Made by a program: the position numbers and the translations under genes. Below are positions 28,806 to 29,876 of a DNA stretch of 64,000 nt, in pieces. The DNA is from Acidobacteriota bacterium (GTDB lineage: Bacteria; Acidobacteriota; Thermoanaerobaculia; Multivoradales; UBA5704). Numbering within the stretch: position 1 is the stretch's first letter; every line of letters starts with the position of its first letter. The stretch is taken from the NCBI GenBank assembly GCA_040349255.1, contig JBEQUE010000144.1, forward strand, positions 15,524 to 79,523, in the 5' to 3' direction. Below the pieces are notes generated by a model. That model was not told the origin of the DNA. It made no database searches and saw nothing but the letters and a program-made list of their open reading frames with translations.

Positions 28806-29876
28806 TCACCGCCCCACCCCCAGCGAGAGCTGCTCGGGCAGCGGTTCGGCCGGCGCGCAGCAGGAGCCTCCCGGCGGAATGGGACGGCCGTGGGGACAGG
28901 CGGAGGGGTGGTCCAGGAAGGCGCAGACCTGGTCCTCGAAGCCGGCGGAGACGGGCATGGGTCGGCCGCAGGCCTCGGCAGAGTGGAGGGTGCGGTCGAG
29001 GAGGACCTCGGCGAGACGAACGCGCCGGACCACCGCGGCGGCCTGCGCCCGGCCGGTCTCGGTGAAGGCGATGTGGCCTTCCACGTAGGTCAGGACGCCC
29101 TGCGCGATCAGGTCGGCGACGCCGCGCCGCGCCACGGAGACGCCTTCGCCGTCCTCCTCCAGGCGGCTCCAGAGGTCGATCAGGGCGGCCTGCAGCTCGG
29201 CGGTGCCGGGCTCTCCGGCGGAGGCGAGGCGGCCGTGCTCCAGCCGGATCTCGCGGCCGGCCCGGGCGGCGATCGAGGGGGCATGGGTCACCAGGATCAG
29301 GGTGTGGCCTCTCTGATGGAGATCGCCGAGGATCGACATCACCACGGCCTCGTTGACCGCGTCGAGGTTGCCGGTGGGCTCGTCGGCGAGGATCAGCGGC
29401 GGCTGGTTGATCAGCGCCCGGGCGATGCAGACGCGCTGCTGCTCGCCGCCCGAGAGCTGGCTCGGCAGGTGGTGGAGCCGCTCGCCGAGGCCGACGCGGC
29501 GCAGCGCCTCCTCCGCCTCGGCGCGGTCGGTCATGCTGTGGACGTACTGCGCCAGCATGACGTTTTCGAGCGCGGTCAGGTACGGGATCAGGTGGAACTG
29601 CTGGAAGACGAGGCCGACCGTGCGCTGGCGGTAGCGGGCCAGCTCGCGCGCCGGCAGGTTTCCCAGGTCCACGCCGCCGACCCGCACCCGGCCGGCGCTC
29701 GGCCGGTCGAGGCCCGAGAGGATGTTGAGCAGCGTGGTCTTGCCGGAGCCGGACGGGCCGGTCACCGCCACCCACTCGCCCTTCTCGATCGTCAGATCGA
29801 GATCATCCACCGCCCGGAGCGCCCCGAAGCGGCGGCTCAGGCCTTCCACCTGGACGATGGGCTCACTACTCGCCAC
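28806..29876 (-). CDS. ABC transporter ATP-binding protein (MacB/LolD-like) fused to a C-terminal DtxR/MntR-like metal-sensor domain
   Basis: Walker [30 protein letters not shown]. The C-terminal 130 aa read [45 protein letters not shown]...[10 protein letters not shown]...[15 protein letters not shown] (DtxR 'CPHG.PIP' signature). Confidence 0.8.

Follow-up and report, generated by a model that had tools for sequence, protein, structure and literature searches.

A DtxR-derived module fused to the ATPase of a Fet-type iron-uptake system in Acidobacteriota

What might part of a metalloregulator be doing at the end of a transporter ATPase? The question is raised by a fetD-like gene (28806..29876, minus strand) in a 64,000-nt stretch of DNA from an Acidobacteriota bacterium (GCA_040349255.1, contig JBEQUE010000144.1, 15,524–79,523 of the forward strand). 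This whole stretch is the window that we analysed, and all positions are given relative to it. The gene's open reading frame (ORF) runs uninterrupted for 356 aa from a GTG start and overlaps the permease gene upstream of it at that gene's stop. A first-pass annotation of the DNA had seen in it a complete MacB/LolD-type nucleotide-binding domain (NBD), continued in frame by a module of the DtxR family. This is borne out. The product of the ORF, taken from the window's ORF list, matches the Pfam ATP-binding cassette (ABC) family ABC_tran with 127.5 bits and, further along, PF02742 with 47.8 bits. Since the Pfam and Protein Data Bank (PDB) matches come with a complete set of catalytic motifs, the fusion is real and far above chance.

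The NBD occupies residues 1–218 (29223..29876, minus strand), as delimited by motifs in the translation and by Pfam, NCBIfam and PDB matches; ABC_tran (PF00005) itself covers residues 24–168. Each of the elements of an ABC ATPase can be read in the translation: Walker A (GPSGSGKT, 40–47), the Q-loop, the LSGGQ signature (LSGGEQQR, 141–148), Walker B (LILADEPT, 161–168) with the catalytic E166, and the H-switch (H198). The best NCBIfam matches are the MacB, FtsE and LolD ATPases, and against the solved NBDs of MacB, LolD, YbbA and FtsE the E-values range from 1e-38 to 1e-53. AlphaFold2 (AF2) models the domain with a predicted local distance difference test score (pLDDT) of ~90; the mean for the full-length 356-aa protein is 84.9. 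A flexible linker follows at residues 219–224 (29205..29222, minus strand), with pLDDT below 50 at residues 221–223 and with a length and sequence that vary in the alignment. Directly beyond these ~6 low-confidence residues lies an extra folded domain, residues 225–340. The in-frame extension first put at ~130 aa is thus present, but its length is ~138 aa.

What is this extra domain? We assigned it (28857..29204, minus strand) from phmmer searches of the PDB, AF2, Foldseek and alignment columns. Its core, residues 272–334 (28875..29063, minus strand), matches PF02742 (Fe_dep_repr_C), the metal binding and dimerisation domain of the iron dependent repressors, at E = 1.5e-12 and above the gathering cut-off of 27 bits. 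The alignment spans positions 1–69 of the 70 in the profile, the metal-binding residues included, and the isolated C-terminus scores 50.3 bits. The C-terminal 134 aa alone also match solved DtxR/IdeR chains, the best being 7b1v (E = 3.7e-8, IdeR residues 33–136). A model of the module by itself (mean pLDDT 75.7) finds only DtxR-family structures as its top Foldseek matches in the PDB. The best of these is IdeR 2it0, with a probability of 1.0 and a template modelling (TM) score of 0.45; DtxR and MntR align locally over 78–79 columns with a root-mean-square deviation of 2.6–2.9 Å.

In the AF2 model the module begins with helix α1 (225–241), a six-residue remnant of α3 (253–258), a wing hairpin (262–271) and a long α4 (273–297). 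After α4 there is a low-confidence loop (298–313) that holds C303, a helix (314–320) that holds C318, and a disordered tail; the residues past the last helix include H323, C327-P-H329-G and C339-C340. The first-pass annotation had taken residues 271–293 for the recognition helix of the winged-helix domain; they are instead the second wing strand and helix α4. Its metal-binding and dimerisation signature does align to PF02742 across the metal-binding segment, but most of the ligand residues in it are substituted, and the spacing quoted was wrong: the gap from EAC to FLD is 15 residues (14 to C318-A-F-L-D), not ~6.

Might the fusion nevertheless be an artefact, produced by a frameshift or misassembly, or by two neighbouring genes being read as one? 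Several database entries do give the C-terminal part as a separate protein of 90–190 aa. We rejected these 'stand-alone' proteins as evidence of a split gene, for they are fragments due to gene calling or frameshifts: locus L003, for example, holds an intact ORF of 349 aa although its annotation covers just 115 aa. L001, L002 and L065 were likewise rejected as split genes, because their breaks fall inside the NBD rather than between the domains, or extend over many genes, a sign of frameshift or assembly errors. On the other side stands the distribution of the fusion. Scanning one genome per species, with taxonomy taken from the record titles, we found the C-terminal module in 57 species-level genomes, all of them Acidobacteriota and most of them Thermoanaerobaculia. 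In 49 of these, independent of one another, Walker A and the C-terminal motif lie in one intact open frame. More than 120 protein clusters contain both Pfam domains, at lengths of 336–372 aa except for one 294-aa fragment and one outlier of 542 aa. The intact fusions in these genomes and clusters refute the artefact.

Is the module maintained? Across 1167 pairs the ratio of non-synonymous to synonymous substitution rates (dN/dS) has a median of 0.26 in the module and 0.17 in the NBD; these were computed by the Nei–Gojobori method (NG86) at high GC and with dS of 0.3–1.0, so that the absolute values are rough. A value of 0.26 indicates that the module is maintained by purifying selection.

An exhaustive search with the module, made without a profile, also recovered more distant proteins that combine ABC_tran with PF02742, in which the module is 33–50% identical to that of the window. 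A profile search yields related sequences in the thousands; of the 120 with the best scores, most are such fusions or their fragments. These distant proteins form a sister clade, whose members, where a source is named, come from Candidatus Polarisedimenticolia, Candidatus Solibacter and 'Acidobacteria bacterium'. The sister-clade module aligns to IdeR residues 12–135 (E = 2e-20), and its α1–α2–α3–wing region is of full length. Given this alignment and the metal ligands that it keeps, we regard it as a complete DtxR of two domains, the SH3 domain being absent. Some members also carry inserts rich in Cys and His: CP...DCC behind the NBD and HxH...CH in the wing. Relative to the sister clade, the clade to which the window protein belongs (the window clade) lacks ~18 residues, corresponding to helix α2 of the helix–turn–helix (HTH) and the turn. 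PF01325, the DNA-binding domain of the family, is unmatched in both clades even at E ≤ 10.

How have the metal ligands fared? To answer this we used an alignment of 79 sequences, 40 from the window clade and 39 from the sister clade. In the sister clade the equivalents of His79, Glu83, Cys102, Glu105 and His106 are invariant (39/39), position 10 is His, Glu or Asp (39/39), and the position of MntR Glu11 is Glu in all but one (38/39). In the window protein Met10 is replaced by A230 (Ala, Gly or Ser across the window clade), MntR Glu11 by I233 (Val, Ala or Ile), His79 by V286 (Val, Ala or Ile), Glu105 by P306 (variable: Ala, Glu or Pro) and His106 by M307 (variable: Met, Ala or Thr). Only the equivalents of Glu83 (E290) and Cys102 (C303) are invariant in the window clade; H298, one position off, could substitute for His98 in the window protein. 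Because five of the seven ligands and HTH α2 are lost, both DNA binding and classical DtxR-type metal sensing appear unlikely for the window protein and its clade.

What the window clade shares with its sister is a set of Cys and His residues: C303, C318, H323, C327-P-H329-G and the C-terminal C339/C340 are conserved across both. The equivalents of C303 and C327 are present together with the CC tail in 393 of 446 sequences with a complete C-terminus, and 391 of them also have C318; nearly all of the remaining sequences end in a tail with a single Cys or with CxC. In two of the 446 the C318 equivalent is missing, and both also lack any tail Cys, a co-loss. The scaffold of the dimerisation domain (RRxRLxE, FLxHPxxCPHG) is invariant. 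Judged by this conservation, the cluster of C303, C318, H323, C327, H329 and C339/C340 is likely to be a metal-binding, iron–sulphur (Fe–S)-binding or redox-sensitive element in the window clade.

To which transport system does the ATPase belong? The first-pass annotation had placed it in an iron-uptake operon, and its neighbours agree. On the minus strand the order is fur, FTR1::FtrD-like, FtsX, FtsX and ABC::DtxR-like, the ATPase gene being last; neighbouring genes overlap by a few bases, which indicates translational coupling. All window-clade loci whose upstream sequence reaches far enough show this order. The first gene, fur (33228..33710, minus strand), is identified by Pfam FUR (103 bits) and NCBIfam Fur. 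The second (31922..33235, minus strand, with a probable ATG at 33235 that overlaps the fur stop) encodes an FTR1 iron permease fused to a Cys-rich periplasmic FtrD-like/DUF2318 domain; it matches Pfam FTR1 (120.8 bits) and FtrD-like (84.7 bits) as well as NCBIfam EfeU, and the fused protein is 437–442 aa long. Next comes a fetB-like FtsX permease of 417 aa with a MacB-type periplasmic domain (30672..31925, minus strand; Pfam FtsX and MacB_PCD), and then a fetC-like FtsX permease (29866..30672, minus strand), recognized by Pfam FtsX and conserved synteny. The probable ATG of the latter, at 30672, overlaps the upstream stop; a longer ORF with a GTG start extends to 30837. Where its context is available, the sister-clade operon is FTR1::FtrD-like, FtsX, FtsX and ABC::module, without an upstream fur (L061, L062, L064, L065 and L068).

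The closest annotated relatives of the fetB-like permease in a plasmid collection are those of E. coli Fet/Fls clusters, to whose first permease it is 33% identical (E = 4e-35). The FtrD-like/DUF2318 part is 40% identical to the plasmid 'Fe-S-containing protein', and the NBD, over residues 8–216, shares 56% identity with the 231-aa plasmid Fet/Fls ATPase (E = 1e-86). These clusters run FTR1 protein, P19 'iron transporter', 'Fe-S-containing protein', two permeases, the 231-aa ATPase and a TlpA-type thioredoxin. From these sequence relationships we conclude that the window gene encodes the ATPase subunit, of FetD type, in a compact iron-uptake system that is based on FTR1 and homologous to FetM–FetABCD. 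In C. jejuni the genes fetA, fetB, fetC and fetD are each required for growth under iron limitation (PMC6083913; PMC10783030), and the experimental work leaves the substrate and role of the FetBCD ABC module unclear (PMC10783030).

How far does the likeness go? As in FetMP–FetABCDEF, there is an FTR1 permease, a DUF2318/FtrD-like Cys-rich protein and two FtsX permeases, and the system is iron-regulated; the MacB-type NBD is that of FetD (Cj1663/CJJ81176_1654) and of the E. coli and Salmonella plasmid Fet/Fls ATPases. However, known FetD proteins are ~230 aa long without a C-terminal domain (the plasmid ATPase ends ~12 residues past its NBD), whereas the acidobacterial ATPase has a tail. FetM and FetA are separate in E. 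coli and C. jejuni but form one fused protein in both acidobacterial clades, and the operon of the window system begins with fur. The genes of the window operon adjoin and overlap all the way from fur to the ATPase gene, leaving no space for a further one, and no P19/FetP gene is among them; the search for one did not extend to the remainder of the genome. Nor does a thioredoxin gene (FetE/FetF) or a gene for a flavin mononucleotide (FMN)-binding protein follow the ATPase gene in the window, where a small ribbon–helix–helix-like ORF and a repeat array stand instead. In some relatives ApbE/FMN_bind genes do lie downstream of the ATPase; an FMN-binding protein is a companion of Fet-type clusters in other phyla.

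What controls the operon? Upstream of fur we find, from its sequence, a promoter with −35 and −10 hexamers, TTGACAAACnGGACCnnnnCGGTCCAGAAT (33768..33797, minus strand), in which an inverted repeat GGACC-N5-GGTCC lies between the hexamers. It is kept in 44 of 47 related loci and is unique in the window, where 0 chance matches are expected. Further down, at 33739..33755 (no strand assigned), there is an operator-like palindrome, TTGAGA-N5-TCTCAA, recognized by its conservation and by a motif count in the window (1 match, against 0.08 expected). In the form TTGAGAC-N4-TCTCAATAA it stands 10–13 bp downstream of the −10 hexamer and is kept in all 47 related loci; it is a candidate Fur box. Two conserved inverted repeats at the one promoter suggest two regulators. 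We also considered, and rejected, a DtxR/IdeR box as the identity of the promoter palindromes, since the half-site spacing of GGACC-N5-GGTCC differs.

The sister clade has strong, lineage-specific palindromes of two types, each again downstream of the −10 hexamer: TTGAAAATGAA-N7-TTCATTTTCAA in L061 (4005–4033), L062 (3772–3800) and L064 (570–598), and AGTTGCAAGT-N-ACTTACAACT in L065 (~2680–2715) and L068 (~2445–2480). The operator type co-varies with the α3 region of the module, which gives a weak hint of a connection, drawn from five promoters and eight module sequences in two sub-lineages and confounded by phylogeny. A Fur-like TGA-N9-TCA frame describes the downstream palindromes roughly as well as a DtxR/IdeR box does, and we assign no regulator from the match.

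What, then, is the module for? That a lineage should have a metalloregulator-derived module on its ATPase argues for an activity tuned to the intracellular metal status. By analogy with other ABC ATPases we propose, at a probability of about one half, that the module is a cytoplasmic sensor and dimerisation domain that would couple ATP turnover to that status. It descends from a DtxR/MntR-type metalloregulator, which on this reading was joined to the ATPase once, within the Acidobacteriota. Two copies of the ATPase would sit under the FetB/FetC permeases, and the modules would pair beneath the NBDs by means of the dimerisation helices of the family. Once paired, they would tie ATP turnover, and hence iron import, to the metal status of the cell through gating or inhibition, a post-translational feedback on top of Fur-dependent transcription. 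In the sister clade, with no fur in the operon, sensing would use the intact primary and ancillary sites of DtxR. In the window clade, in which the classical site and HTH α2 have decayed, it would fall to the conserved Cys/His cluster, which we suppose to bind the metal. The metal-dependent gating suggested in the first-pass annotation is plausible for the window protein, but would need this cluster and not the classical DtxR site.

Several observations weigh against a sensor of this kind. The five classical positions that hold non-ligands in the window clade include two, 105 and 106, that are not even conserved. AF2 assigns pLDDT of only 45–65 to residues 298–313 and 335–356, which is where the Cys/His cluster is located, and the Cys-rich site could equally be a purely structural zinc site. 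In addition, MacB-type (type VII) ABC systems are mechanotransducers, not importers, so that trans-inhibition by a transported substrate can serve only as an analogy.

Could the module have ceased to sense anything? As a former regulator it might simply clamp the ATPase dimer together, or dock another component of the Fet system, its Cys and His residues forming a structural zinc site. The classical ligands and HTH α2 lost from the window clade, the invariance of the RRxRLxE and FLxHPxxCPHG scaffold, the purifying selection on the module and the presence in the operon of a fur gene that already supplies regulation would all suit such a clamp. But the metal-sensing site of the sister clade is complete and invariant in 39 of 39 sequences, which makes a purely structural role hard to explain, and tail-less FetD ATPases function without a clamp in E. 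coli and C. jejuni. We consider a structural clamp possible, though unlikely. A hand-off of iron, or a redox relay, in which the module takes Fe(II) from FTR1, or in which Fe–S clusters or thiols in it reduce the periplasmic FtrD/FetA domain, would make sense of the conserved thiolate-rich motifs, of the extra inserts in some sister-clade members, of the ApbE/FMN_bind genes in related loci and of the proposal that FetBCD supports a redox step (PMC10783030). Transfer of electrons or metal through FtsX-type permeases is unsupported, however, and the ancestry of the domain is that of a sensor, not of a chaperone; such a relay strikes us as distinctly improbable.

Might the protein instead be a one-component transporter subunit and transcription factor, whose binding to the operator of the operon that encodes it depends on metal? 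It is the sister clade that makes this attractive, with its full-length α1–α2–α3–wing, its alignment to IdeR from residue 12, all of its metal ligands, an operon without fur, and strong palindromes just downstream of −10 that differ between sub-lineages whose α3 also differs. Yet those palindromes have a frame compatible with Fur boxes, and their co-variation with α3 comes from five promoters in two sub-lineages and is confounded with descent. The HTH of neither clade is recognized by PF01325, and an ATPase tethered to the membrane would need to reach DNA. For the window protein, with α2 deleted and only six residues at the position of the recognition helix, the HTH is incomplete, so that the transporter/regulator entertained in the first-pass annotation becomes very improbable; we rate it higher for the sister clade. 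There is also a wider possibility, improbable as it stands, in which the Fet-type ATPase would be a self-regulating iron-import motor that turns the FetB/FetC mechanotransducer on or off. Its module would read the iron or Fe–S status of the cytoplasm; for this the sister clade would use its intact DtxR site and the window clade its Cys/His residues or an Fe–S cluster, and the sister polypeptide might in addition bind the operator as a membrane-tethered transcription factor.

A number of further features of the locus deserve mention. The small ORF directly downstream of the ATPase gene (28496–28750, minus strand; MARMNVVFKDSLLKEMRELVP...) resembles a ribbon–helix–helix antitoxin and has no Pfam match; it occupies the position held in relatives by the ApbE/FMN_bind genes. 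Beyond it, at 28169–28450, lie two convergent arrays of about six 20-bp repeat units, with cores CTTATCCGCCGCGAA / GGATAAGG. The arrays, which resemble iterons or a set of binding sites, together make up a large, imperfect palindrome with its centre near 28298; a PIN-like ORF that starts MADFLLDSDVVIWHL is overlapped and apparently cut short by them. Farther on are two paralogous neighbours (26019–26468 and 26535–26927, minus strand; 149 and 130 aa) that share the motif ...QRLATVLR.SLK..YGP...KL.EFGIQ... and have no Pfam match. From ~14000 to 26000 the G+C fraction is 0.50–0.59, compared with ~0.70 elsewhere in the window, and this segment may be a foreign island. On its other side the operon adjoins genes for a PGPGW-domain membrane protein (33884–34213, plus strand) and a citrate synthase (34259–35599, minus strand). 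The citrate synthase neighbourhood is kept in most of the related genomes, which may bear on iron–citrate chemistry or be mere synteny. Finally, one protein (P0099, 434 aa) combines Fe_dep_repr_C, FeoA and FMN_bind, and would be a DtxR-type regulator fused, or mis-joined, to an FMN-binding protein.

Has the fusion been described before? In literature mostly outside subscription journals we found no paper on DtxR–ABC fusions, PF02742 or acidobacterial FTR1 systems that describes it, in keeping with the first-pass annotation, which knew of no characterization. Automatic pipelines do detect both domains, and one JGI product name joins 'lipoprotein export ATPase / Mn-dependent DtxR regulator'; the cluster annotation is only 'putative ABC transport system ATP-binding protein'. 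The fusion occurs in abundant, uncultured soil Acidobacteriota and provides a testable lead into the role of FetBCD in the widely conserved FTR1/P19-type iron uptake. The two clades make a natural pair, the one with an intact sensor and no fur in its operon, the other with a decayed sensor and fur as its first gene. It is a clear instance of a DNA-binding repressor reused as a module at the level of protein, one that on our proposal would act as a switch.

How does this arrangement compare with known systems? To the regulators DtxR, IdeR and MntR the module is homologous over α1, the wing, α4 and the PF02742 domain, and the sister clade retains every primary and ancillary ligand of DtxR/MntR. 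It differs from them in being fused rather than a free-standing transcription factor, in lacking the SH3/FeoA domain, in having an HTH that PF01325 does not recognize and in its additional conserved Cys residues (C318 and the CC tail); the window protein departs further, being without α2 and without five of the seven ligands.

Among ABC ATPases, MetN (C2 domain), ModC (TOBE) and MalK have, after the NBD, a regulatory domain that forms dimers, detects a ligand in the cytoplasm and inhibits the ATPase cycle. The architectural principle, NBD then regulatory domain, would be the same here, whereas the fold of the domain, the class of ligand and the type of transporter differ. ZnuC has a C-terminal domain for zinc sensing that contains a CxxxHxCC motif; the binding of Zn dimerises the domain and locks the transporter (PMC12236471). 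As in the ZnuC of E. coli ZnuBC (bioRxiv 10.1101/2025.07.03.663024), a motif of Cys, His and Cys-Cys is borne on the C-terminal extension of an ABC ATPase for metal uptake, and post-translational control above a Fur-family repressor, shown for ZnuC, is what we propose by analogy for the window protein. The folds and ancestries are nonetheless unrelated, and ZnuBC is a type II importer, unlike the MacB-type (type VII) system of the window. We class the window gene's product with the ABC ATPases that end in a C-terminal regulatory domain; here that probable role falls to a domain of metalloregulator origin, on a Fet-type iron system. The arrangement is not categorically new, and it would add a domain derived from a transcription factor to the substrate-sensing domains already familiar on the ABC ATPases MetN, ModC, MalK and ZnuC.

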